Source of the DNA: Escherichia coli
GTDB lineage: Bacteria; Pseudomonadota; Gammaproteobacteria; Enterobacterales; Enterobacteriaceae
Direction: 5' to 3' (one strand)
Assembly: GCF_044324785.1 (NCBI RefSeq)
Contig: NZ_CP172127.1
Length of the DNA: 64,000 bases
The notes under the pieces were generated by a model. That model searched no databases. It was not told where the DNA came from and was given only the letters and a program-made list of their open reading frames with translations. Position 1 is the stretch's first letter, and each line of letters begins with the position of its first letter. This document shows positions 42,869-63,607 of this stretch, piece by piece. The translations under genes and the position numbers were made by a program.

Positions 42869-44131
42869 CTATTTTAATGGATTGTTAATCTTTGCATATT
42901 CAAACGGGCTGATACATTGTTCTCTGTTCGCACCCAGAAAATCTGCCCACCACTGTAGCATCAGTCGACGTTCTTCCAGATGTTCTGCTTTATGGATATA
43001 TGCAGCACGTACACCATTACGCTCCTGATGGCTCATCTGACGTTCCACAGCATCGCGGGACCACAAACCTGATTCAATCAATGCACTGCACGCCATCGCC
43101 CGGAATCCATGACCACAGACTTCCTGGGTTGTGTCATATCCCATCACCCTCAGGGCTTTATTTACAGTATTTTCACTGATCGGTTTACGCGGGTCATGTG
43201 CTCCCGTAAAGATCAGACCATTTTCACCAGCCCATGTCTGTAGTTCTGTCAGTATGGCTACAGCCTGTTTGCTGAGTGGCACAAGATGTGGTGTTCGCAT
43301 CTTGGAGCCCCGGTGTGAGTATTTTACGCCTGGCAGAGGTTCGCGTTCGGCTGGAATAGTCCACATGGCATTGTCAATATCAATTTCAGACCAGCGGGAA
43401 TATCTGAGTTCACTGGAACGAATAAAAACCAGTAAATTCAGCATAACTGCCAGTCGGGTGACAGGCTGACCTTTATAACCGTCAATACGCGACAGAAGTT
43501 CAGGCAGGCGTGAAAGATCCAGAGCAGGGCGATGCTGGCGTTTTACCGTGGTCAATGCACCAGCCATATCCAGAGCCGGGTTATATCTGATGATGCCAGA
43601 CTGTACGGCATAACGCATTACAGCAGATATTCTTTGCTGCAGACGACTGGCGATTTCATAAATTTGTTTTGCTTCTGCAGCACGAACAGGGATAAGCAGG
43701 TCCGGGGTATTGAGTGTTGTGATATCCCGGTTGCCGATAAAGGGGAAAACGTGTGTCTCGAGGCTTTTGATTACTTTATCGCTGTGTGATTGTGCCCATT
43801 GTTTATTACTGGCATGCCAGCGTCGTGCAATATGTTCAAAAGAGAGTTGTAAATCAGGGACTACTTTTTTAGCTCTTTTTTGTTCGCAAGGGTCAATCCC
43901 CTCTGAAATCAGTTTTCGGGCCTCATCCCGTTTTGTACGAGCTTCGGAGAGAGAAACTTCTGGATATACACCAAGTGCCAGAGTCTTCTCCTTACCCAGA
44001 ATACGATAACGGAGACGCCAGTAACGGGAACCATTAGGATGAACCAGCAGGAACATGCCAGCCCCGTCAGTGAGTTTATAAGCCTTGTCAGTGTGCTTTG
44101 CAGCCCGGATTTTTGCGTCAGTCAGTGCCAT
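42869..44131 (-). CDS. P4-type (IntA-like) tyrosine integrase
   Basis: 420 aa; MALTDAKIRAAKHTDKAYKLTDGAGMFLLVHPNGSRYWRLRYR N-terminus typical of P4-family integrases; next to tRNA-Phe 3'-end repeat. Confidence 0.85.
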   Translation of the reverse strand: MALTDAKIRAAKHTDKAYKLTDGAGMFLLVHPNGSRYWRLRYRILGKEKTLALGVYPEVSLSEARTKRDEARKLISEGIDPCEQKRAKKVVPDLQLSFEHIARRWHASNKQWAQSHSDKVIKSLETHVFPFIGNRDITTLNTPDLLIPVRAAEAKQIYEIASRLQQRISAVMRYAVQSGIIRYNPALDMAGALTTVKRQHRPALDLSRLPELLSRIDGYKGQPVTRLAVMLNLLVFIRSSELRYSRWSEIDIDNAMWTIPAEREPLPGVKYSHRGSKMRTPHLVPLSKQAVAILTELQTWAGENGLIFTGAHDPRKPISENTVNKALRVMGYDTTQEVCGHGFRAMACSALIESGLWSRDAVERQMSHQERNGVRAAYIHKAEHLEERRLMLQWWADFLGANREQCISPFEYAKINNPLK

Positions 44132-44287
44132 AGTTCAGCCTTCTGAATGCGTTAAAGAGGGTACAAATTCTGTCGAACTGGGGTATACCCGCAATTATAC
44201 CCACACAATGGGGTTGATGTGGGGGGAATCTGGTTGAGTTCGGTAGAATTGATTTGGAGGCAGAACGCTTAAATTGTGGCGTTCTGA

Positions 44288-44317
44288 AACGAAAAACGGA
44301 CCTCCGTGGAGGTCCGT
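44288..44317 (-). terminator. rho-independent terminator-like hairpin
   Basis: ACGGACCTCC-GT-GGAGGTCCGT perfect inverted repeat followed by T-run on the minus strand. Confidence 0.4.
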
Positions 44318-44328
44318 TGATATGAATT

Positions 44329-44347
44329 TGGTGCCCGGACTCGGAAT
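44329..44347. repeat. 19-bp direct repeat of tRNA-Phe 3' end (att site)
   Basis: TGGTGCCCGGACTCGGAAT is the reverse complement of the tRNA-Phe 3' terminus; sequence diverges from the tRNA beyond 19 nt. Confidence 0.6.
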
Positions 44348-44594
44348 GAAACTGGTTGTATAACAAGTTGTTTTATATTGATTGTTTTGTGTTTGTTATT
44401 TTTGAGGCCACCAATGAGGCCCCCATGTGCAATTCGAATTCTTTTGACGCTATAATCCCTCTTTCTTGTGGTTTGTTGTAATCATTTTGTCTGGTTCGAT
44501 ATGCTGAATCGCGGAATCGAAGTGACAACAAAATACAGAGATTTATAAAATACCTGGCTACCTGTGTTAGGGAGCGTTAACGCACAGATTTTGT

Positions 44595-44921
44595 TTATGG
44601 CTGCCAGAAATGATCTGATGGTTTGTCGTCTGGCTCTGCAAGTACCCTGTTGATATCCCGGGAACCATGAACGATACGTTCGATACGAACTTCAGTATCC
44701 AGTACCCTGAACAGCAGAAGGTAACGACCATACGAACAACCTCTGATCCCAGCCCCTAACTCGGGTCTTTCTCTGTAGAGTACTGGCGATTCGGCTATCA
44801 ACAGACATTGTTGGTAAAGCTCTTCGGTAAAACTGATTGCACGGACAGGATTATCCTGAGCGATCCAGTCACCTATAGCTTCAAGATCGTGTTCTGCTAA
44901 TGGTGAAACAGTCAGTTTCAT
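44595..44921 (-). CDS. parE: ParE/RelE-family type II toxin
   Basis: 108 aa; overlaps upstream antitoxin gene by 4 bp. Confidence 0.7.
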   Translation of the reverse strand: MKLTVSPLAEHDLEAIGDWIAQDNPVRAISFTEELYQQCLLIAESPVLYRERPELGAGIRGCSYGRYLLLFRVLDTEVRIERIVHGSRDINRVLAEPDDKPSDHFWQP

Positions 44922-45181
44922 ATTGGCTGTTCACCTTCTGCCATCTTTTTGTATTTGTGCGTCAGTCGCCCGAATACCTCTTCAGCACTTTTACTTTCAC
45001 CGCTGTTGATGCCTGCGGTCACGGCGCTCTGGAGTGATTCAAGCTTTATCTGCTGTTCCCGTTCTTCCAGAGCACGAAGTCCGGCACGAATGACTTCACT
45101 TGTATTGTTGTACCGACCACTTTCTATTTGTTCGCGGATAAACGTTTCAAAGTAAGGACTGAGGGATACACTGGTAGGCAT
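44918..45181 (-). CDS. parD: ParD-family (RHH) type II antitoxin
   Basis: 87 aa; ...FIREQIESGRYNNTSEVIRAGLRALEEREQQ ParD-like signature. Confidence 0.7.
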   Translation of the reverse strand: MPTSVSLSPYFETFIREQIESGRYNNTSEVIRAGLRALEEREQQIKLESLQSAVTAGINSGESKSAEEVFGRLTHKYKKMAEGEQPI

Positions 45182-45252
45182 GGTTATTTTCTCGCCGATT
45201 GATCACTATCAATTAATAATAGTTAATATTCGTGAATTGTAAAATACCTCTT

Positions 45253-46122
45253 TTATGCCTTGCTGCTTTTGTTCACTGTGCTTGCCAGGGCTTCCGGGTA
45301 GTGTCTGGCAATAATATCATTAAGCCTGTCAACCAGCTCTGGTTTCCTGAACGTGATGTGCGCGGAGCCCTTCTTAAAGTATCTGATGCTGAACATCTCA
45401 TCTTCATAGTCCTCTTTACCCTGAACAGACTGGATGTGATCATCCAGATGAATGGTGATGTTTTCCCGGTTGTCGGGGATCGGTTTGCCGCTGAACAGGT
45501 GTAGCATTCTTTCCAGATCGGCAAGTCGATCTGCCTGTGGGCCGTTGTTCAGATGAAACCCCCACCGGTCCCACCTCACCAGGTTGTTGACGATAATTTT
45601 ACTGCCAAATTTGCAGGGGCAATTGGTTTTGTAATTCCAGCTCAGTCCCCTGAAGACGTTGATCACCCCTCGCTCAAACACCTCATCCTTATTCTGGTGC
45701 AGTTGTTCAAATGTGCTCAGAATGTTCGCTTCGCAGATTTCCGGAAAATTATCGTACTCCAGTGACCGGTACCATGTATCACGGGCTTGTGCATCCATTA
45801 ATGACAGCATCCCTGAACGTTGCATCAGGTCACGCCAGAGTTCGCGATCGAGATTCCGGGTGATGGCTTTCATTGCGGTTTCCGGTTTCTCCATCAGCCA
45901 GCAACCGCAGCGAAAATCCTGTTTCATGGCCCAGTCCCGGGCGGTTTTACCTCCAATACTTTCTGTCATTGCTGATATTTCAGCCAGTTGCCGGATAAGT
46001 GTGTCGATTTGCAGCAGTGTACTCTTTCGTACAGCCAGAATGTGGCGGATACTGGTTGAGCAAATAACGTCCGTATGCCCGGTGACCACTTCCGGACGGG
46101 AGGCTGTGATATCTGACATCAT
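45253..46122 (-). CDS. conserved island hypothetical protein (paralog of 14167-15009)
   Basis: 289 aa, near-identical to copy 1 over most of its length. Confidence 0.6.
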   Translation of the reverse strand: MMSDITASRPEVVTGHTDVICSTSIRHILAVRKSTLLQIDTLIRQLAEISAMTESIGGKTARDWAMKQDFRCGCWLMEKPETAMKAITRNLDRELWRDLMQRSGMLSLMDAQARDTWYRSLEYDNFPEICEANILSTFEQLHQNKDEVFERGVINVFRGLSWNYKTNCPCKFGSKIIVNNLVRWDRWGFHLNNGPQADRLADLERMLHLFSGKPIPDNRENITIHLDDHIQSVQGKEDYEDEMFSIRYFKKGSAHITFRKPELVDRLNDIIARHYPEALASTVNKSSKA

Positions 46123-53034: not shown

Positions 53035-53997
53035 ATGACGGCACAACAAAGTGATGCGCTGCGTGAGATTGCTAATAAGGCCAGAGTTACCACCATTCTT
53101 CAGTGTAAGGCCTGGAAAGATACCCAGCGAATACTGAAGCGCAGCGGACTCGTGTGCAGAGAACGGTCAGAGCCGTTTGATCCGGAGAAACATTTTGACT
53201 GTTATACGGTGCGTTATCTGTACCTGCTTAACATAATGGCACTTGAGCTAAAGTCAGATACACGGATTAAGGTTGAGGTGGGGCAATGGTATCGCATGAC
53301 GGGTAAACGTTTATCACTTAATGTCCCGCCTTTTATGCTGATCCCGCGTAATATCCGGAGAAAAGTGGACGGATTCAGACAATCCAGACAATCAGAAGAT
53401 GAAGCAACCAAAAATCCGCCTCAACCGTTCACGGGCAGTTTGTATAAGGTTTTGAGCAGGGACAGCGATTCGGCTGAGCTGGACGCCTGGTTTGCTGAAC
53501 CGCCGCTGACACGGCAGGAAGTGTGGGAGGGGAGGCGTGTTACAGATTTTGATCCATGGGCGCTGTCTTCGTTTATTTGCCGTTCAGAATCCCCGACGTT
53601 TGAACTTTTTTACCAGGAATATAAGCGACTGGGATTAAAATCTCTTTTTGTATCAGGGGTAATGTTTGAACAGTTTTTAACAGGGCTAAGTTTCAGAAAA
53701 TATGGGGACTGGGTTGAATCTCAGTTACTGGAATCACTGGGAAATGTGATGTTTTTCATGCTGCTTTATGACATGGAAAATCTGGATAAGTTTATAAAAG
53801 AACTGATGGACATTAATGTTCAAAGTGAAGATTCGAAGGAAAAAGGGAAATCACGAAAAGAGAGAATGCTGGAGTATATCAACTCATATATCCGCAATGT
53901 TTATGGAAGATTCCTTTGTACGTCAAAAGAAAGGTACGAACAGCATAAACGCAAAAACAGCAGCAAAAAGAAAAACGGTTCTGGTGGAACTCATTAA
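53035..53997 (+). CDS. hypothetical protein (orphan)
   Basis: 320 aa, ATG with GGGAGG SD; Lys-rich C-terminus; no recognisable motif. Confidence 0.5.
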   Translation: MTAQQSDALREIANKARVTTILQCKAWKDTQRILKRSGLVCRERSEPFDPEKHFDCYTVRYLYLLNIMALELKSDTRIKVEVGQWYRMTGKRLSLNVPPFMLIPRNIRRKVDGFRQSRQSEDEATKNPPQPFTGSLYKVLSRDSDSAELDAWFAEPPLTRQEVWEGRRVTDFDPWALSSFICRSESPTFELFYQEYKRLGLKSLFVSGVMFEQFLTGLSFRKYGDWVESQLLESLGNVMFFMLLYDMENLDKFIKELMDINVQSEDSKEKGKSRKERMLEYINSYIRNVYGRFLCTSKERYEQHKRKNSSKKKNGSGGTH

Positions 53998-54848
53998 CGG
54001 GAATAATCCCCTGCTGTTTTCTGCATAAACAGACGATCAGCTGATAAGATGAGTTTATCCAGCATTTCAGCCTGCGTCAGATTATTCTTTTTTGCCATTT
54101 TCCGGAGTGCATTCCTGGCTTCCGGAGAAATCAGGGCACTTATCTGTACCCGGGAATCGGTTTTCTCATACCGGAACATTTTCTGGTATGAGCACTTCAT
54201 GCGCCTGAGAAAATCATTCTGCTGATAAACTAATTCTTTTAACTTTTGAGGTTCAGTACCGACAGAATAGATTTTCATGAAGACACGGCGCACATAAGCT
54301 ATTATGAACAGACGTGACTCCCCTGAAGCTTTAAATTCTGAAATATCAGGACAGTGACGTTCTTCGTCAGTGCAATGTTTTTGCAGATACGCCCATGCCC
54401 ATTTGATATGTATCCGCCGGGAACCAAGCCATGTCATGGGGTTCACTTTTTCAGCATATGACCATAAAAAATGAACGACATACAAGAAGTCAGATACATT
54501 TTCTGTCCCGGTTAGCCTTATAAGCTCCTGTAGCCATTTTCTCGTCACACGAATCCTTGCCTGATGATTAGCTGGAGCTGCTTCTGTGGCAAACAGTCTG
54601 GCATACAGACAGGAAGTTCCGTAATCTGCATATTGCTCACCTGAGAGTCGGACAATACTGTCAGGAACATGATATATAAACATCCATACCCAGAATGCGG
54701 CTACAGGGTCTTTTTGCACCCACTCCGGAACAACGTCTCTGCCTGCATTATCAGCATTAACAGAAGGTGATTTATCGTTATGTCGGTAATATTCATATTC
54801 CATCCGACTAAAAACATGATCAGATTCATCTGGTGAATGCACAGACAT
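53994..54848 (-). CDS. hypothetical protein with C-terminal RHH-like segment
   Basis: Track ORF 53994-54863; preferred start MSVHSPD preceded by AGGGAG; 3' end overlaps the convergent gene by 4 bp. Confidence 0.5.
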   Translation of the reverse strand: MSVHSPDESDHVFSRMEYEYYRHNDKSPSVNADNAGRDVVPEWVQKDPVAAFWVWMFIYHVPDSIVRLSGEQYADYGTSCLYARLFATEAAPANHQARIRVTRKWLQELIRLTGTENVSDFLYVVHFLWSYAEKVNPMTWLGSRRIHIKWAWAYLQKHCTDEERHCPDISEFKASGESRLFIIAYVRRVFMKIYSVGTEPQKLKELVYQQNDFLRRMKCSYQKMFRYEKTDSRVQISALISPEARNALRKMAKKNNLTQAEMLDKLILSADRLFMQKTAGDYSR

Positions 54849-55810
54849 GAACTCCCTGGGCATAAATGCACAACCAACTCTATAGAACTCTTTACCCCCC
54901 CTCTTATCACCTCTGTCAGTAAATTTCGCCTGAATCCCCTTTTATCCATACATCAGAAAAAATGCAATAACGTTCATGGACTCTTTTCTCTGATTTACAT
55001 AAAAACACAGAAAATTACAATGTGATTAATATCGCGTTTTTTTAAAAAATTATATTGACATCATGTTATTTCCTGTAGTTTGCAATAAAAAATTTTCTTA
55101 AAATATTTATATGAATATTTTTGATGCCTCAACATGCTGTCGTTATATAGAGTGTCTTCTCATCATTTATGGTTATTTCTCTCAATGCGCATACGCTCTG
55201 TCAGGGCATGTCTGTAGCTGCCATGATGGGGAATGAGAACTCAGCAAAAGGATTTTGGATGCAGTGAAGTTCTCCCGGAGACGGTTCTTCTGAGGTGGGG
55301 GTGGCATCATATCCTCTTACATAAGATGATGGCGTGCGCGGGAAAGCTTTCTTCTGTACTCAGGTTGTTGTTGGTTATCCCCGGTCGTCATTGTTTTCCT
55401 GACATTAAGATCCTGATTCCAGGATCTATAGCACAGTCGTTTCCTTGTGTGCTGTTATGCTTCTGCTCAGTTCAGAACAATTGCTTCATCCGGCATGGAG
55501 AATTCCGGTGAGTGAGGCAGTAAGAAATGACTGACATGAATGTTATATGTGAAGGGGCCGGAGAGACGTCATAATCAGTATGGCTGTCATTCTGGCTGGA
55601 AAATGCGATCACTTTCCGGGGTAAAAGACAACATGGAAGCTGACGAACGGGATGCTCCGGATGGTCTTTTCAGGGAGGCCTGGGTAAATAATTTCAGAGT
55701 AAATCTGTATGTTTTTTAAACAGTAAAGATCCATGCTGGCCGTGAAAAACTGAAATCAACACTCAGTCTGCATGGATGTCTGAAGATGTTGAGAATGTCG
55801 GGAATGGTAC

Positions 55811-55906
55811 TATACACGTATTTTACTAAGTATTTTTACTAAGCATTTCAGTAAGTGTTATACACGTATTTTCTACTAAGTGTTTTACCAGACATACACG
55901 TATTTT
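55811..55906. repeat. iteron-like direct repeats (T)ATACACGTATTTT x3 with associated ACTAAGT motifs
   Basis: Three copies spaced about 35-48 bp apart inside a 1.6-kb non-coding region. Confidence 0.45.
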
Positions 55907-56468
55907 CATAAACACTTCTACAAGTGTTTTCGTTAAGCATTGCTATACACATCCAGTTTAGTAAATCTTTACGTTAACTAAATCAGTTTAATGCTGCTGT
56001 AAAACCTTTCTGTTTAAGCAATCAATCTGCTATTCGATTTTACTGATGTTACGTTTAACCTTTCCTTAGATTTCGAGTTTCGACGTTAGCTTGAGAAAAG
56101 TATCTTTACGTAAAGCCCAGTGAATTAACTCAAATCCGATTGAGGTAACCTGATGCGATTTACTGTGAGTTTGCGATAACACTGTTAAATGGCTTATGGA
56201 TGATTTTGTAACGGCGAGATTGATAAGGTGATTAACTGGCCCTGGTGTTTTTTCTCAGCGTAAGGTGATTATCTTCATCATAAGGCTCTTTTCAGAAAAA
56301 GTGTGATGATTGGTTGTGGTGTTTTGATTCAGATGAGGATCTGCCAATGATTATGATGTATTGTAAGAAATAACGCCTTCAGAATGTTGGAGCATGCACT
56401 TACACAAACTGTTTTTCTAAAATTAAGGGAACAGTTTAAAGAGTATAAACTGTTCATCTTCTTCAGGA

Positions 56469-56999
56469 TTAAGCTACATTGTTGTTATGACTGACAGGAT
56501 TGTTTTCTTCCCCTGACTCTGGGCTTAACAGTCCCTGGCGTTGTAGATATTCACTGACTGACATTCCAGAACTACGGATCCTGTCAGAGATTTTACGAAA
56601 TTGATCCTTCCATTCTGCAGGTAATTTCTTAATTTGTCTGACTTTACAGGCTACACTGTACGGGGTTCGCCCTAGTTTCTCTGCCAGCCAGAAAAGGTGT
56701 TTACCAATTTCATCGTCCGGTACATCCTCCAGAACATCTCGCAATAAACTCTCGTCTGCCTCATTCCATGCCACACCAGCATTTGGGAAACGAGGATCGA
56801 TCTCTCTTTCCTTCTTCTCCTTCTTACTTTGCTCTTTTCGGGATGATACAGATACGACAGAACGTTCTTTTACCGCTGTAATTGCCATAACTGCATTGAG
56901 CAGAGATCTGCGCTCCACATCGTTCAGCATTTTTCCTTCACAGATCAAATCATTCAGGATGTCAATGACTAGATTCAGACTTTCTTCTGTTAGCTTCAT
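56469..56999 (-). CDS. hypothetical protein (orphan)
   Basis: 176 aa; charged central linker; no recognisable motif. Confidence 0.5.
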   Translation of the reverse strand: MKLTEESLNLVIDILNDLICEGKMLNDVERRSLLNAVMAITAVKERSVVSVSSRKEQSKKEKKEREIDPRFPNAGVAWNEADESLLRDVLEDVPDDEIGKHLFWLAEKLGRTPYSVACKVRQIKKLPAEWKDQFRKISDRIRSSGMSVSEYLQRQGLLSPESGEENNPVSHNNNVA

Positions 57000-57668
57000 A
57001 TTTCAGACCTTGAAGTATGTAGATAATCAGCACAATTACTAATGTGATAAATATCAGAAGATAATTTACAGGTAAACCGGAAAATACATCTGAAGAATAA
57101 AGGCCTCAGCTTAACGTTTCAGCCAGTTTGTGAGCTGATTGAGGTACGGCGATGACATTAACGGGAATTACTCCCCTATAGCTCTGAGCTTATTTTTCAC
57201 CCTGGCAACATATGGTGGCTACTGCGCATGGTTTTGGAGTAGATATCTTACTACTCGTAGAATTGTGCTTACTGGTCAGGCCAGCGCACAGGCATTCCGT
57301 GCAATCAATAGAACACTGGTTTTTTAGTCTTCCGTTACCCATCAGGATGTTAGTGCAGATTCCGGTGTATTCGATCAGTTGTTCGGCGAATCAGCGATCG
57401 ATCACGATGCGATTTCGTATGTTAGGGATGCTGGTATGATTACTCGCTGAAAAATAATGTGAAAAGGCAGTTTTTCTTTAGACATTTAGCTCATTCATGC
57501 TGTTGTTTTACGTTTTGCTGTCGTGTGCAGGATTATCTTTTCGTTACGGGACGATTCATTCCGTTTTAATCAGGAGCTATTGGCGTTGCTCATTGGTGGG
57601 ATGCCGTAAAGTTTTACCGCGGCGATTAATGATGTGAAGTCAATCCAAATCAACGGAGATCTCTCATC

Positions 57669-58400
57669 ATGAATCAACCAATACACAATGATTACTGGTT
57701 ATCCCGTTTTGAAAGTATTCTCAACAGTGCCCTGGTGCAACACCGTGCCGTCTCGTTAATCCGGGTGGATTTACGTTTCCCTGAGCATATGCCTGTCACC
57801 ATCATGGATCCCGATCCGGATTCAGCGGTGATTTCTCGTTTTTTCGAATCCCTGAAAGCCAAAATTCAGGCTTACCAGCGGAAAAAACGACGTACCAACA
57901 AGCGTGTGCGTGCAACCACCCTGCATTATTTCTGGTGTCGGGAGTTTGGCAAGGAAAAAGGCAGGAAACATTATCACGTGATATTACTGCTCAACAAAGA
58001 TACCTGGTGCTCGCCAGGGGATTTCACCGTTCCTTCTTCGCTGGCGACGCTGATCCAACTGGCATGGTGTAGCGCTCTGCATCTTGAGCCCTGGCAGGGT
58101 AATGGACTGGTTCATTTTTCCAGGCGGACGCCTTTCCGTAAACCGGCATCATCTGATGCTCGCCCTTCTTCCGATGATACGCCTTTGTCGGGTGGATGTT
58201 CTGAAACCAGGAAGGCTTCAGACAAAAAGCCGGGTGAAGCCGCTGTTCTCTGGATCAAGCGTGGTGATGTGGAAGCGATGCAGAAAGCCATGGAGAGAGC
58301 CCGTTATCTCGTGAAGTATGAGACGAAGCAGCATGACGGTTCTGGTCAACGTAATTATGGTTGCAGCCGTGGAGCGGGGCGTCTACTGGATGGCAGGTGA
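57669..58400 (+). CDS. YagK-like inovirus Gp2-type protein (HUH replication-initiator-like)
   Basis: 243 aa; HUH motif HYHVILLL; SD GGAGA. Confidence 0.65.
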   Translation: MNQPIHNDYWLSRFESILNSALVQHRAVSLIRVDLRFPEHMPVTIMDPDPDSAVISRFFESLKAKIQAYQRKKRRTNKRVRATTLHYFWCREFGKEKGRKHYHVILLLNKDTWCSPGDFTVPSSLATLIQLAWCSALHLEPWQGNGLVHFSRRTPFRKPASSDARPSSDDTPLSGGCSETRKASDKKPGEAAVLWIKRGDVEAMQKAMERARYLVKYETKQHDGSGQRNYGCSRGAGRLLDGR

Positions 58401-58726
58401 ACCCTGTAAAAAGGCATCCGGTGCCAGAGTATATGTCACAGTAAGGGCGTGGTTGACGCCCTTAGCTCGTTTTCTGAAAAAGTCGTCCTGAAGTCATGCA
58501 ATGTTTCCTGGTTTTCATGCATCCATCATTTGTCGCTGCGATGCCAGACTTCTGGATGCACACATGTTGTTTTACTTTTGTCAGCATCATAAATGCGCCG
58601 GGACTGGTGAATGGAGATAAGCCATTTTATTATCGACGTCAGCGAACATACTCACCATGCCGGTATGTTCCTGAACTGAACAATAAGTTTTGCGCTGATT
58701 ACAGTATGTGAAGGAGGTCCGTTACA

Positions 58727-60331
58727 ATGAATTCCGCTTATATGCAATCCTTGCAGACATCCCACCACTTCCCAGCTGATTTAACCTACAGATTATTTCC
58801 TAGTGAGCTTGCATATCTCATTGACGACTTATATGAAAGTACCCAACTTCCGCTGGAGCTCATTTTTAATACTGTACTGGCAACGCTCTCACTCTCCTGT
58901 CAGTCACTGGTTGACGTTGTTCATCCTCACACCAACATGCCGGAACCCTGCTCACTTTATCTGTTGGCAATCGCAGAGCCAGGCGCGGGAAAAACAACGA
59001 TAAACAGACTGGTGATGAACCCCTGTTACGAATTTGCCGATCGACTCATTCAACAATACGAAGAGAGAAACAAAGATTATAAGACTGAACTACAGATCTG
59101 GAATACCCGGCAGAAAGCGCTTGCTGCCAATTTAAGAAAGGCTGTTAACCGGGGGTATCCGGGGGAACAGGAAGAAGAGGCGCTGCGTAATCACGAAAGA
59201 AATAAACCGACACGTCCGGTTCGACCGAATTTTATCTATGAAGATGTTTCGCTTAAAGCGCTTGTGGAAGGGCTCAATGAACATCCTGAGGCAGGGGTTA
59301 TTTCTGACGAGGCGGTCACTTTTTTCAGAAGCTATCTGAAAAATTATCCGGGCCTGTTGAATAAAGCATGGAGTGGACAACCGTTTGATTTTGGACGGGC
59401 TGACGAGAAATACCATATCACGCCACGTCTGACATTTTCGTTAATGTCCCAGCCGGATGTCTTTACGAATTATATAAATAAAAATGACGTACTGGCGTGG
59501 GGAAGCGGATTTCTTTCCCGGTTTCTGTTCAGTCAGACCGGAAGTCCTTCCCGGGTACGGGATTATACGAGAGGCGAGTTCAGAACAAAACCAACCCTGG
59601 AGAAGTTTCATAAAAAGATTAACGGATTTCTGTTAAGCCATAACATTAATTCCCCCGGTATGAGCACCGAAAGGAAAACATTAAAACTTGCAAAGAAAGC
59701 GTTGGGGGAGTGGCAGGAAAACCAGATTAAGATTGAAAGAAAAGCGCTTGCAGGAGGGGAGTGGGAACACATCAGAGATATTGTTCTGAAAGCAGGTTCT
59801 AATATACTGAGGATAGCTGGAATATTCACCTGCTATTGCTATAAAGATGCTGAGGAAATTGAATCAATTGCGCTTTTTAAAGCTATGCATCTCATGGACT
59901 GGTATCTGGAGGAGGCGAGCACAATATTTTATCCCATGTCTGCACGATGCCAGTTTGAACAGGATGCCTGTGAACTGTATGCATGGATTATGACCCGAAT
60001 AAGGCAGAATAATTGGCGTGCTATCAGGAAAACAGACATTGAAAGATATGGTCCCAATCGTCTGAGAAGAGCAGAAAAACTTACACCTGTACTCAATCAG
60101 TTAATCGCTCAAAATTATTTCCGTATCATCAAGATGCGATCGCATCAGGCACTTTATGTTTCTGCTCTTGATAATAATGGTTACATCCTTCCTTTCGGCG
60201 CAATGTCTTACGAACCGTTTGATATTGTTCCACCCCAGTATAACCATAATGCGAAAACATATTCCGTTGTTATTCCACCGGCATTAATTCAGTCATTTAC
60301 ACCTGATTCCTCAGCTTACACCTTATTTTAA
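58727..60331 (+). CDS. YfjI-like island protein with Walker A-like P-loop
   Basis: 534 aa; AEPGAGKTT motif; strong SD GAAGGAGG. Confidence 0.6.
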   Translation: MNSAYMQSLQTSHHFPADLTYRLFPSELAYLIDDLYESTQLPLELIFNTVLATLSLSCQSLVDVVHPHTNMPEPCSLYLLAIAEPGAGKTTINRLVMNPCYEFADRLIQQYEERNKDYKTELQIWNTRQKALAANLRKAVNRGYPGEQEEEALRNHERNKPTRPVRPNFIYEDVSLKALVEGLNEHPEAGVISDEAVTFFRSYLKNYPGLLNKAWSGQPFDFGRADEKYHITPRLTFSLMSQPDVFTNYINKNDVLAWGSGFLSRFLFSQTGSPSRVRDYTRGEFRTKPTLEKFHKKINGFLLSHNINSPGMSTERKTLKLAKKALGEWQENQIKIERKALAGGEWEHIRDIVLKAGSNILRIAGIFTCYCYKDAEEIESIALFKAMHLMDWYLEEASTIFYPMSARCQFEQDACELYAWIMTRIRQNNWRAIRKTDIERYGPNRLRRAEKLTPVLNQLIAQNYFRIIKMRSHQALYVSALDNNGYILPFGAMSYEPFDIVPPQYNHNAKTYSVVIPPALIQSFTPDSSAYTLF

Positions 60332-60930
60332 AACAATTTTGTGAGTAGAAAACGAAAATCATAATCCTTCGAATGAAGGTTGATGATAAGGTGTGTTGCA
60401 TATCCTGCACCTGTGCAAATATTCACCAATTATTGGGTGTGAATGAAAATTTCTCTGAAAAAATCGCTATGGTAGCAACAGTAGCAGCACATACACTACA
60501 TCTGTGATTTGGTTTTGTTTTCATAATGACCTGCTGTCAGAGCTGATTGAATGCTGGGATGTGCGCACTGGTGGAAGAGTGGTTTTCGTTTCAGATATAA
60601 CGAAAGGCAATCGAAAGATTGTTTTAAACATGGATTAAAGCTAATCATTAACCATATTGTGTGAGTTTTTATATATAAGTTTGTTTGATTCTTGCCGTGA
60701 TGAGTGCTGGGGTATATGACGATGTCGCTCTCTTTCTGAATAACAAATTATTATTCGTCTGTTACTGATAAGGGATGCGATTCATGTTTTAATAGATGGT
60801 TGAAGAAAATTAATTTGATATTTTTTTTGTAAGGGAATGGAACTGTCCGGAATATGTTCAGAACGGCGGATTTCTCATTTCCATTCATTAAACATGGATA
60901 ATTTTAATTTAGGTTTATTACTATTATTAT

Positions 60931-61045
60931 ACTCACTCCCTTTTTGATATAATCTCTATTGTTATTTACTTCCTGTCTTTACTCACTCCCTTTTTCATAC
61001 AATCTCTATTGTTATTTACTTCCTGTCTTTACTCACTCTCTATCT
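60931..61045. repeat. 50-bp tandem direct repeat (about 2.3 units)
   Basis: ACTCACTCCCTTTTTGATATAATCTCTATTGTTATTTACTTCCTGTCTTT repeated immediately with two mismatches, then a partial third unit. Confidence 0.6.
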
Positions 61046-61920
61046 TTACGATTATATTCACTCTATCGTTACACATTCCATTAGTATTACTCTTGTTATC
61101 GTATTCATTCCATCCCTCAATCATATTTACTGTAACTCATATGATGTTCAGGTAAGTTATTCTCTACCATTCTACTGATGATATTCATCTGTTCTCATTT
61201 TCACTGAAACAGCAATTAATTTTAATCTTATCCATCATGAGCTGTATTTTCTTAACAATGGTTGTTTATCTGAAGTGTTTTAACTATTCTGATGAACATC
61301 AATTCTTTTGTCATTACTGATTAACCGAATGTTTACTTTTTGATAAGGTATCCATGATTCTGTAACGATTAACAGAGCTGGATAAACAATGGAATTGACA
61401 GGAGAGATTCCTGATTATGTTTGTTCTGGGTTGTATTATCTAAGATGCAGGATGAAAATCATGTCAGTGGTATTTTTTATTCTGCTATCGTGAGCCGTGA
61501 ATGTTCATGTCCTTAAGAACAGATTGAATGAGCGCATATAAGTTTATTGCATTGGCCTTGTACACAGTTTTTACAACCACTGAGAGCAAGTTTGTAGTTT
61601 ATGATGTGATTGGTCGCAATATGTTTCTTAACCTTCTGGACGTGGTGTTTTATCGCGTATTTACAGTATTTCGTGATGTTTTATTGAGTCTGTATTTTCT
61701 TTACTCCTCGTTTATCTCATCTCTTTAGCTAATACCATCAGATAATCCATTTCTTTCTGCATAATGCTGCGTATCGTTAATAACCCGTCGTATCCATTCT
61801 GCTACAGCATGCCTGATAAATACCATCTGTAAGTTATTACCGTTTTAGATCTGATTATGAGCGAAAGCATTAATTCGTTCACAGAGCTTAAAACATCATT
61901 AACTTTCAGGAGTCATCAAC

Positions 61921-62487
61921 ATGCCTAAATCTTACACACCAAACTGGTTTTTTACCGCTTTACTTGACAATCACATCAATCAAATGATGGCACGCTATTC
62001 CTGCCTGCGGGCCTTACGGATGGATTTCTTCTACAGGAAAGATACGCCTGATTTCTTACAACCTGATCATCGCTGGCTTGAATTGCAGTTGCGTATGCTG
62101 CTGGAGCAGGTGGAACAATTTGAAAATATCGTTGGTTTCTTCTGGGTGATTGAATGGACGGCTGATCATGGTTTTCATGCGCATGTGGTTTTCTGGATCG
62201 ATCGTCAGAGGGTTAAAAAAATATATCCCTTTGCGGAGCGGATAGCGGAATGCTGGCGGTCTATTACGCATAACAGCGGTTCGGCACACCGCTGTACATA
62301 TCAGCCGCATTATACATACAACATCAACATTCCTGTGCGCCACAACGATCCTGAAAGCATCGATAATATTCGCGGTGCCCTGCATTATCTGGCAAAAGAA
62401 GAGCAAAAAGACGGGCTGTGTGCCTACGGCTGCAATGAAGTTCCTGAACGTCCTGCTGCAGGGCGTCCTCGTAAGCCTCACTTCTGA
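61921..62487 (+). CDS. YfjJ-like inovirus Gp2-type protein (HUH replication-initiator-like)
   Basis: 188 aa; HUH motif FHAHVVFWI; SD AGGAG. Confidence 0.7.
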   Translation: MPKSYTPNWFFTALLDNHINQMMARYSCLRALRMDFFYRKDTPDFLQPDHRWLELQLRMLLEQVEQFENIVGFFWVIEWTADHGFHAHVVFWIDRQRVKKIYPFAERIAECWRSITHNSGSAHRCTYQPHYTYNINIPVRHNDPESIDNIRGALHYLAKEEQKDGLCAYGCNEVPERPAAGRPRKPHF

Positions 62488-62744
62488 AGCTTAAATCCTG
62501 AGCTTCCTGTCCTGGAAACACTCCGTCGGTAAAAACTTACCGCCTTGCTTAATGATGTGAACTGAAGTCAACGGAGATCATTCACTCTGAACCACATCCG
62601 GTGTTCTGTCCCTTGTCGGTGACCTGATCTTCCCGTTCTGCCCCGGTTCTTCACTTATTCCATCAACCCCATCCGCAAACCATAACACGTCAGCTTATTC
62701 ACGGGCAGGACGCATTGTGGGCTGCGCATAACGGAGCATATCTT

Positions 62745-63305
62745 ATGAATGCTATCCCTTATTTCGACTATAGCCTGGCCCCCTTCTGGCCATCTTATCA
62801 GAACAAAGTCATCGGCGTCCTTGAGCGTGCGCTGCGTGAGCAGTCCGGCTCACGGATACGGCGGATCCTGCTTCGTCTGCCGTGTGAATATGACAATACC
62901 TTCAACAGCAGAACGACCTGGTTTGGTATGGATTTTATCGAAACCGTCAGTGCGCTGATGAATGCAACACCCGGACGTGACCTTTGCTGGCTCCTGACCC
63001 GTCATCCTGAAAAACCGGAATACCATGTGGTGCTGTGCGTCAGACAGGAGTATTTCGACGGCCCCGAACTGGATCGGTTGATTCTGGATGCCTGGAGTAA
63101 CGTGCTGGGTTTCGCGTCACCAGGTGAAGCAAAGCCGTACCAGAAGCAGATCACCCGGGATGTGGTACTGGATCGCCGGTCACCGGACTGCGAAGCCCTG
63201 TTTAAGGACCTTATCTGGGCGTTCAGTGATTTCGCCCGCGATCGCCGTGGAGTGCGCGATCCGGAAGCCCGTTGCCTCGCCGGTAATCCCGGTTGGCAGT
63301 GCTGA
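62745..63305 (+). CDS. YagK/YfjJ-related protein with partial HUH motif
   Basis: Track ORF starts at TTG 62715; ATG at 62745 after ACGGAG; motif PEYHVVLCV has one His only. Confidence 0.5.
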   Translation: MNAIPYFDYSLAPFWPSYQNKVIGVLERALREQSGSRIRRILLRLPCEYDNTFNSRTTWFGMDFIETVSALMNATPGRDLCWLLTRHPEKPEYHVVLCVRQEYFDGPELDRLILDAWSNVLGFASPGEAKPYQKQITRDVVLDRRSPDCEALFKDLIWAFSDFARDRRGVRDPEARCLAGNPGWQC

Positions 63306-63373
63306 AAGCAGCATTCCATCCCATACCTCGTATTACCCCATTCTTCATCAATCTCACAGAGGATATTCTGACC

Positions 63374-63607
63374 ATGTTGACCACAATAAGCCACGACAGC
63401 GTGTTGCTGCGTGCCGACGATCCCCTGATCGACATGAACTACATCACCAGTTTCACCGGCATGACCGATAAATGGTTTTACAGGCTGATCAGTGAAGGTC
63501 ATTTCCCTAAACCCATCAAACTGGGGCGCAGCAGCCGCTGGTACAAAAGTGAAGTGGAGCAGTGGATGCAGCAGCGAATTGAGGAATCACGAGGAGCAGC
63601 AGCATGA
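63374..63607 (+). CDS. alpA: AlpA-family transcriptional regulator, second copy
   Basis: ITSFTGMTDKWFYRLISEGHFPKPIKLGRSSRWYKSEVEQW; track ORF trimmed to MLTTISH after GAGGA. Confidence 0.8.
   Translation: MLTTISHDSVLLRADDPLIDMNYITSFTGMTDKWFYRLISEGHFPKPIKLGRSSRWYKSEVEQWMQQRIEESRGAAA

Follow-up and report, generated by a model that had tools for sequence, protein, structure and literature searches.

Introduction

Repeats that lie beside the gene of an HUH initiator are a known kind of element. In the rolling-circle double-strand origin of the pMV158 family, a nic locus is combined with a bind locus of direct repeats for RepB, and in the parvovirus origin a Rep/NS1 binding element of short tandem repeats stands beside the terminal resolution site. 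Both parvovirus Rep/NS1 and pMV158 RepB bind tandem repeats next to their nick sites. In the common region of geminiviruses, Rep iterons follow the TATA box of the Rep gene and precede its start site. Clustered direct repeats are also found in theta-type iteron origins like those of pSC101, P1 and RK2, and in the arrays of recombination directionality factors (P2 Cox, 186 Apl, lambda Xis, P4 Vis), where co-oriented short repeats are placed at a promoter. In the case of PIME islands, a family different from the one described here, a repA-oriV with iterons has been demonstrated (bioRxiv 10.64898/2026.01.12.698999).

Here we describe a repeat array in a chromosomal island of Escherichia coli, located in a stretch of 64,000 nucleotides that was analysed as a whole and that we will refer to as the window. 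With geminiviruses, the locus shares lineage-specific iterons inside the promoter-like part of the control region of an HUH gene; with theta iteron origins, clustered direct repeats in AT-rich DNA of an excisable mobile element; and with the directionality factor arrays, co-oriented short repeats at a promoter-like site together with an encoded AlpA/Xis-type protein. This family of repeats and its layout, with repeats embedded in a promoter-like core and with HUH protein and helicase split, appear to be undescribed. In a library that is incomplete, no functional study was found for yfjJ, yagK, ‘inovirus Gp2’, PF11726, DUF3987 or CP4-57 replication, and its searchable part held no description of the array or of the two boxes, box1 and box2, described below. 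In related Pseudomonas islands, the Gp2-like gene is a core gene of unknown role.

Results and discussion

Island context of the array

The array lies in a 1.6-kb gap that is 99.9% identical to strain 55989 (Table 1). On the left side, on the minus strand, a CP4-type distal backbone is found, comprising the CbtA/YeeU toxin-antitoxin, RadC, an antirestriction protein, DUF932, a WYL/HTH regulator and the YfjP GTPase, followed by two poorly conserved ORFs. On the right side, on the plus strand, the order is Gp2, a YfjI/DUF3987 helicase, two more Gp2-like ORFs and an AlpA-type gene. Across genera, the GTPase-DUF932-WYL operon diverges from the Gp2 gene, and in many distant loci the AlpA-type gene lies about 0.1-0.7 kb from the Gp2 gene, mostly just downstream. 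The original prediction had described the whole gap as non-coding. RefSeq indeed shows no features over 54864-56468 in 15 near-identical genomes, but wide conservation is confined to 55686-56337. The left 820 bp (54864-55686) were rejected as a pseudogene remnant, as they show no protein similarity to the neighbouring gene families.

Several further features of the island were observed. ORFs on the plus strand by the GTPase promoter (window 53035-53997, L004 3336-4559 and L003 3401-4531, with 320, 407 and 376 aa) are distant relatives of 22-26% identity, which suggests a fast-evolving gene of the backbone and not cargo. In strains 55989 (L001 15752-17553) and ECCRA-119 (L006 3585-5386), the Gp2 gene is followed closely by an IS100 copy, which occupies the place of the intact 534-aa YfjI-type gene of the window. 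A second ORF-poor stretch of about 1.6 kb (60331-61921) lies upstream of a second Gp2-type gene (61921-62487, motifs HAHVVFW and YLAKEEQK). It contains a 50-bp tandem repeat in 2.2 copies at 60930-61041, whose unit 1 has a perfect extended -10 (TGATATAAT) and whose unit 2 has TACAAT, as well as TTAGTATTAC at 61081. Beyond the toxin-antitoxin end of the island, a MobH-family relaxase gene (43018-44637) and a tyrosine recombinase gene are found within 43018-45553 (from L001 155-2690), which suggests a second mobile element in tandem.

Table 1. Coordinates of the array, its module and the neighbouring genes in the window, and of repeats in loci of other genera (rows with an L number)
Feature	Position	Strand	Description
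289-aa ORF with C-terminal ribbon-helix-helix-like tail	53994..54863	-	NF010256 (7.5e-5), Arc-like phrog; alternative candidate binder
Conserved non-coding module holding the array	55686..56337	+	650 bp; 75-93% identity to diverged island variants, sharp edges
Box1	55689..55703	+	TAATTTCAGAGTAAA; left edge of module; motif TAAyWyCAGAGTrA
Promoter-like core including box2	55789..55816	+	-35 TTGAGA 55789-55794, spacer ATGTCGGGAATGGTAC (16 nt), -10 TATACA 55811-55816
A repeats	55811..55906	+	14 nt, 3 copies; copy 1 overlaps -10 element
B units ACTAAGYRTTT	55825..55946	+	starts 55825, 55838, 55850, 55875, 55919, 55932; interleaved with A copies
Short inverted repeat	55911..55930		AAACACTT-CTAC-AAGTGTTT; one inverted B core; read from sequence
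Conserved non-coding tail	55947..56337	+	many invariant blocks; no excess folding on either strand (z = 0.0 and 0.5)
Optional insert between module and HUH gene	56338..57491		1.15 kb; carries 176-aa ORF
176-aa ORF	56469..56999	-	no informative family match
Gp2/YfjJ-family HUH nuclease gene	57669..58400	+	‘inovirus Gp2’, yfjJ/yagK family; motifs HYHVILLL, YLVKYETK
YfjI/DUF3987-type helicase gene	58727..60331	+	phrog_2373 DNA helicase (6e-43); YfjI family in 97%-identical genome
AlpA-type excisionase/regulator gene	63326..63562	+	79 aa; phrog_2790; PF05930 on L099 equivalent
L017 Limnobaculum repeats	after box2		unit 36 bp, 4.5 copies
L032 Budvicia repeats	after box2		unit 8 bp, about 17 copies
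L028 Budvicia repeats	after box2		unit 16 bp, 3 copies
L034 Budvicia repeats	after box2		unit 11 bp, 2 copies
L062 Pectobacterium repeats	after box2		unit 17 bp, 3-4 copies
L059 Yersinia repeats	after box2		unit 10 bp, 2 copies
L043 Klebsiella repeats	after box2		unit 12 bp, 2 copies
L014 Proteus repeats	after box2		unit 23 bp, 2 copies
ACGTAGTATTTT copies, Providencia/Proteus	L015 5600-5625, L020 5576-5623, L023 5577-5625		2-3 copies

Composition and spacing of the array

The 13-mer ATACACGTATTTT occurs in three exact copies inside 95 bp; these same three are all the copies in the 64-kb window, and in 100 dinucleotide-preserving shuffles none was found (0 expected). The corresponding 14-mers on the plus strand are TATACACGTATTTT at 55811-55824 and 55859-55872 and CATACACGTATTTT at 55893-55906. 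The three-copy direct repeat of the original prediction was thereby confirmed, as were the associated ACTAAGT(A/G)TTTTAC elements, which correspond to ACTAAGYRTTT units at six positions. Together, the A and B families place nine cores (AAGYRTT or ACGTRTT), all in one orientation, in a cluster no longer than 150 bp, with units 11-14 bp long and a GC content of the region of 29-32%. The entire plus strand of the window holds 39 such cores, and a second cluster does not exist, all other 150-bp stretches on either strand having at most one core each.

The spacing does not follow the helical repeat. The 14-mers are 48 and 34 bp apart, i.e. 4.6 and 3.2 turns at 10.5 bp per turn, and the core-to-core distances (12, 13, 12, 11, 14, 20, 24 and 13 bp) vary irregularly between 11 and 24 bp; the proposed ‘near-helical multiples’ were thus wrong. 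Relative to the promoter-like core, A copies 2 and 3 are found at about +48 and +82. The short inverted repeat at 55911-55930 is lost in other E. coli variants without compensatory change, and it is probably not a conserved hairpin.

A conserved non-coding module in E. coli

The expectation that the array lies outside credible ORFs held, since no ORF of at least 40 aa exists across 55735-56328. A search of 5426 complete E. coli genomes with a 321-bp core around the repeats gave 2514 matches in 1864 of them, at 68-100% identity, and all but one of the matches are chromosomal. In all 14 E. coli variants examined, the module is upstream of the Gp2 gene and co-oriented with it, and the spacer between the two varies. 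The alignment of these 14 variants contains indels of 1, 2, 4, 19 and 20 bp and many short invariant blocks. Because the indels are not multiples of three, the pattern is that of non-coding DNA.

Within the module, the repeat zone gains and loses whole units, so that across E. coli variants 1-5 A-type and 1-4 B-type copies are found. The three 13-mers are exact, whereas the sequences around them are 20-30% different from one variant to another. Several units of a divergent Escherichia lineage share a substitution (AAGTCG/AGGTCC for AAGTAT/AAGTGT), a sequence pattern that hints at concerted change.

The tail of the module carries a perfect 12-bp palindrome, CTTTACGTAAAG, at 56104-56115, and three copies of TTTACGT together with two of TAAGGTGATTAWCT (positions 55968, 56049, 56224 and 56261). 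The insert that follows the module is present in L005, L007 and L090 and missing from L002, L003 and L004; its hairpin at 56429-56455 resembles a terminator in both directions.

Two boxes and a promoter-like core

To extend the comparison to other species, a set of 79 loci encoding Gp2 homologs was used. Among 7-mers, GTATAGT, TCAGAGT and TAGTATT showed the strongest enrichment in the 700 bp preceding the Gp2-homolog genes. Two motifs were described, namely box1 and box2 (TGTYGG..GTAWTATATA, beginning at 55796 in the window). A regular expression for the pair gave 26 matches in 1.1 Mb, every one of them upstream of a Gp2 homolog and none elsewhere. In all 26, box1 is 58-123 nt upstream of box2 on the strand of the gene; in the window the distance is about 100 bp. 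In the case of K-12 yfjJ, box1 and box2 are located about 130 and 80 nt ahead of the ATG, and K-12 yagK also carries the pair.

Box2 resembles a promoter. The box2 region of K-12 yagK, which is homologous to the core of the window, consists of TTTAGA, the 16-nt sequence TGTTGGATAGGTATTA and TATAAT, and this site is among the RpoD-holoenzyme genomic SELEX sites obtained in vitro by Shimada et al., where it is also flagged for H-NS (PMC3946193). In the window itself, the core is best called promoter-like, its identification resting on homology to the yagK site. The -35 element TTGAGA is invariant in the 14 E. coli variants, and the -10 element is TATA[C/T]A, with only the fifth position varying. 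A consensus promoter scan did not call the box2 core of the window, because its -10 lacks the final T (T6). The conserved part of box2 falls between the hexamers and is therefore the promoter spacer. The first A copy starts on the -10 element. K-12 transcription-start data for yagK and yfjJ were not located.

These observations bring up a purely transcriptional explanation, in which box2 would be a sigma-70 promoter, with the repeats (+1 to about +130) serving as operator or leader and having no part in replication. Besides the SELEX and H-NS data on yagK and the hexamers kept in all 14 variants, it is favoured by the conserved spacer sequence, which suggests a spacer-binding regulator, by TAnnnT-like hexamers within the units, and by the units in Providencia, which overlie a leftward promoter-like site next to a gene whose product has a ribbon-helix-helix tail. 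Candidates for the regulator would be an AlpA-type protein, the 289-aa protein, the WYL regulator, H-NS, or sigma-dependent pausing on the -10-like copies. Q-type antiterminators use elements in the -35/-10 spacer and -10-like pause sites (PMC9371919), and both a conserved spacer and -10-like units are seen here. However, no Q-like gene was identified, and the island AlpA is an excisionase-like protein of 79 aa, whereas the Q-like AlpA of P. aeruginosa is larger, with functional residues up to position 142 (PMC9371919). The failed promoter call also speaks against this explanation, as do the distance of 1.87 kb between promoter and Gp2, the intervening ORF on the opposite strand and a leader in which no intrinsic terminators were found. 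Regarding the regulators, AlpA is too conserved to account for lineage-specific units, and some variants have the array but lack the ribbon-helix-helix gene. We regard the purely transcriptional explanation as possible, though somewhat doubtful; a regulatory-only role is almost as likely as the protein-linked origin that we favour.

Repeats after box2 in other genera

The same architecture is found in other genera, with box1 and box2 conserved and lineage-specific repeats directly past box2. These direct repeats begin within about 10-40 nt of box2 (Table 1), and their units are often similar to the -10-like half of box2. As a score, the longest short-range direct repeat in the 130 bp past box2 was compared with all windows of the same locus. 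By this measure, 11 of 20 lineage representatives were in the top 5%, with a combined p of 5.6e-8 (3.6e-9 against composition-matched shuffles), values that have to be read with the caveat that some loci had entered the set after their repeats had been seen. Some lineages that have both boxes, including K-12 yfjJ, are without a counterpart of the array.

In islands of Providencia and Proteus, the E. coli unit type recurs as ACGTAGTATTTT. These copies are placed differently, about 100 bp upstream of box1 and over a leftward promoter-like ATGACA-17-AATACT, and in Providencia the site adjoins a gene with a ribbon-helix-helix-like tail. This placement looks more like an operator for another protein.

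The likeness of the units to the -10-like half of box2 implies that they could be slippage copies of promoter sequence. The array might accordingly be a neutral or weakly selected minisatellite, in which AT-rich DNA after box2 slips or exchanges unequally and serves at most for H-NS nucleation. Consistent with this are the copy numbers, which differ between close variants, the 8-bp unit repeated about 17 times in Budvicia, the low GC content (29-32%), the resemblance of the units to the adjacent -10-like sequence, and the H-NS flag at the yagK spacer (PMC3946193). Drift of this kind sits poorly with repeats that are found at the same position in 11 of 20 lineages in spite of different units, with a unit type kept between E. 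coli and Providencia/Proteus, with three exact 13-mers amid diverging flanks and with the single orientation of all units. We thus consider a minisatellite unlikely.

The Gp2/YfjJ protein

The original prediction referred to an adjacent HUH gene. Neither of the ORFs flanking the gap has a detectable HUH signature, but an HUH gene exists 1.76 kb rightward. Its product matches the Pfam profiles YagK_YfjJ_C (6e-36) and REP_ORF2-G2P (1e-7), and the His-hydrophobic-His motif and the YLxKxxTK tyrosine motif are invariant in Gp2 homologs of 42-88% identity. Because a profile search against PDB sequences gave no match, a fold search was needed. The AlphaFold model has a mean pLDDT of 76.5, with low confidence limited to an E. 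coli-specific insertion, and the fold is closest to the origin-binding nickases of the parvovirus NS1/Rep type, at a sequence identity of 9-16%. Gp2 thus has an HUH fold as well as HUH motifs, and the island encodes in cis what a rolling-circle origin calls for, an HUH initiator with a catalytic Tyr.

Gp2 relatives were found in 64 plasmid records and one phage record. Concerning autonomous replicons with a close Gp2 relative as sole replication gene, the collections contained no bona fide small plasmid or phage: two small records, a small ‘plasmid’ and a 4.5-kb ‘phage’, were rejected as a chromosomal or island-type contig and an unverified contig. The remaining link of Gp2 to replicons is the distant Pfam link to inovirus G2P. 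The lack of a small Gp2 replicon makes an efficient autonomous origin less likely.

In several E. coli Gp2 genes (P0045, P0061 and P0083, in L097-L099), a frameshift shortens the product to 214 aa and removes the catalytic Tyr motif. Of these three loci, one retains a normal array, in another the array has diverged, and in the third it falls outside the contig. The locus with the diverged array belongs to the divergent Escherichia lineage, whose units have the shared substitutions.

Comparison with theta-type and rolling-circle origins

The array had been proposed as an origin of replication or a regulator binding array. The comparative evidence supports a protein-binding array linked to an HUH gene; the hallmarks of a classical iteron origin are missing. 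A theta-type origin as in pSC101, P1 or RK2 would make use of a RepA-type initiator and DnaA. The direct repeats within an AT-rich stretch would fit such an origin, and excised islands with repA-oriV iterons exist (PIME, bioRxiv 10.64898/2026.01.12.698999). It is contradicted on three defining features. Firstly, units of 11-14 bp with irregular spacing differ from the 17-22 bp at two-turn phasing of theta iterons. Secondly, within 55686-56337 there is no DnaA box (TTATCCACA, at most one mismatch), the nearest being at 54942 and 57018, and no GATC cluster. Thirdly, none of the seven flanking ORFs in 53035-63305 encodes a RepA-, pi- or TrfA-type initiator according to NCBIfam and PHROGs, the only related match being a weak one of the tail of the 289-aa ORF to a small regulatory RepA (CopB-like RHH) family. 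A theta-type origin is therefore extremely unlikely.

In comparison with pMV158, the array has no nick-site hairpin and no detected single-strand origin, it lies in an integrated island and not on a plasmid, and its repeats overlap a promoter-like -10. Conserved box1 and box2 with lineage-specific repeats after box2 would fit the layout expected of a rolling-circle origin, a nick region shared by the family next to variable repeats for initiator binding. With respect to parvoviruses, the units are 12-14 bp rather than 4 bp long, terminal hairpins are absent and the initiators share the low identity given above. The TGTYGG of box2 presumably resembles the nick motif of AAV, which we take only as a lead. 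Regarding geminiviruses, the conserved nonanucleotide stem-loop is missing, the gene is up to 1.9 kb off, and host and element type are unrelated. A conserved inverted repeat was found around neither box1 nor box2, nor was there a conserved hairpin that would present a nick site; single-strand folding of three segments gave z values of -1.4, 0.0 and 0.5. This is unlike most rolling-circle origins and speaks against an origin used by Gp2.

The flank had also been suggested to hold a non-coding RNA. Such a structured RNA, including the repeats, would agree with the promoter-like core facing a 540-nt conserved non-coding stretch, and a leader transcript may start from this core. Yet a search of Rfam 15 at a permissive E <= 1 over 53500-58500 gave nothing relevant, and the RNAalifold consensus of the 14 variants (-44 kcal/mol over 847 columns) contained just seven compensated pairs. 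As folding was at the level of shuffles and no terminator was found, the RNA claim was not sustained; we judge a structured RNA very unlikely, and the single-strand origin was dropped on the same grounds, RNAalifold and single-strand folding being not above background. Two matches below threshold, PhotoRC-I (24.3 bits against a gathering threshold of 45, at 58092-58159 inside the Gp2 coding sequence) and STnc410 (20.7 bits against 50, at 54932-54982), are both outside the array and probably due to chance.

Candidate proteins for binding the units

Besides Gp2, two proteins of the island were considered as binders. In the case of AlpA, binding of the units was rejected because AlpA is 60-75% identical across lineages with unrelated units, Gp2 being 30-42% identical, and because no motif cluster exists upstream of intA in K-12 CP4-57. 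The array also differs from those of recombination directionality factors in this respect, as well as by its spacing of 11-14 bp or more rather than one helical turn and by units that are lineage-specific although AlpA is highly conserved. AlpA is still a candidate for binding the conserved boxes.

The L002-type variant encodes a homolog of the 289-aa protein with a ribbon-helix-helix tail, and an analogous tail is found in Providencia L015. The 289-aa protein was rejected as binder of the units, since its gene is missing from several variants that retain the array (types L003, L004 and L007). The tail, RVQISALISPEARNALRKMAKK..., is common to ORFs of 260-312 aa (53994-54863 on the minus strand, L002 3615-4403 and L015 4635-5573), which are otherwise 26% identical or, in the case of Providencia, unrelated.

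Ribbon-helix-helix proteins are typical relaxosome accessory factors, and HUH enzymes include relaxases. The array could be a site used in trans by a helper element, i.e. an oriT mimic, a site for a relaxosome accessory protein, or a pac-like site for phage-mediated transfer. That a ribbon-helix-helix protein is encoded beside the region would agree with this, and Pseudomonas islands of the Gp2/AlpA type are transduced by a jumbo phage. We nevertheless consider a helper site quite improbable, given that no resemblance to known oriT or pac sites came to light, and that the module has no linked transfer genes in the window, where the gene of the MobH relaxase is located past the far end of the island.

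Proposed mechanism

The array is real, linked to the Gp2 gene and conserved, it gains and loses whole units, and the same layout is found in other genera. We infer that Gp2 is the protein that binds the units and nicks at this site, with replication or transfer thereafter. According to this reading, Gp2 would bind the units, and they would serve as origin and operator when the excised island replicates as a rolling circle or is mobilised; we put this interpretation forward tentatively, as somewhat less than probable. Firstly, an oligomer of Gp2/YfjJ would bind the tandem 12-14-bp units. Secondly, Gp2 would nick one strand in the easily melted conserved core. Thirdly, once AlpA and the integrase had driven excision of the island, Gp2 and its possible partner, the YfjI helicase, would jointly set off its rolling-circle replication or single-strand mobilisation. 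Since the first unit lies over the -10 element, its occupancy by Gp2 would repress or tune the promoter as well. Embedding iterons in a promoter, as in geminiviruses, means that a single binding event could serve both origin recognition and autorepression. The recurrence of the E. coli unit type in Providencia, despite a Gp2 identity of only 35%, argues against this reading, as do the lineages that have both boxes but no array and the likeness of many units to the -10-like half of box2.

A wider proposal is that box1, box2 and the repeats together form the origin, with a nick core and a Rep-binding array, of a split module similar to parvovirus Rep, made up of the YfjJ/YagK HUH nickase and the SF3-type helicase YfjI, and that CP4-57-type islands replicate or transfer as rolling circles after excision. 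We hold this to be possible but doubtful.

Significance

Islands of the CP4-57 and CP4-6 type are among the commonest mobile DNA of E. coli and carry virulence, defence and toxin-antitoxin cargo, while yfjJ and yagK are counted among the poorly characterised genes of K-12. If the rolling-circle module is true, it would give these two y-ome genes a function, and it would mean that CP4-57-type islands, which a third of E. coli and many other Gammaproteobacteria carry, can replicate or transfer after excision. A defined site in cis, a possible partner helicase and an HUH protein whose catalytic motifs are intact lead to a concrete, testable hypothesis for how these islands persist or move. Even if the array were only an operator, it would still mark the control point of a backbone operon that is common to thousands of islands.
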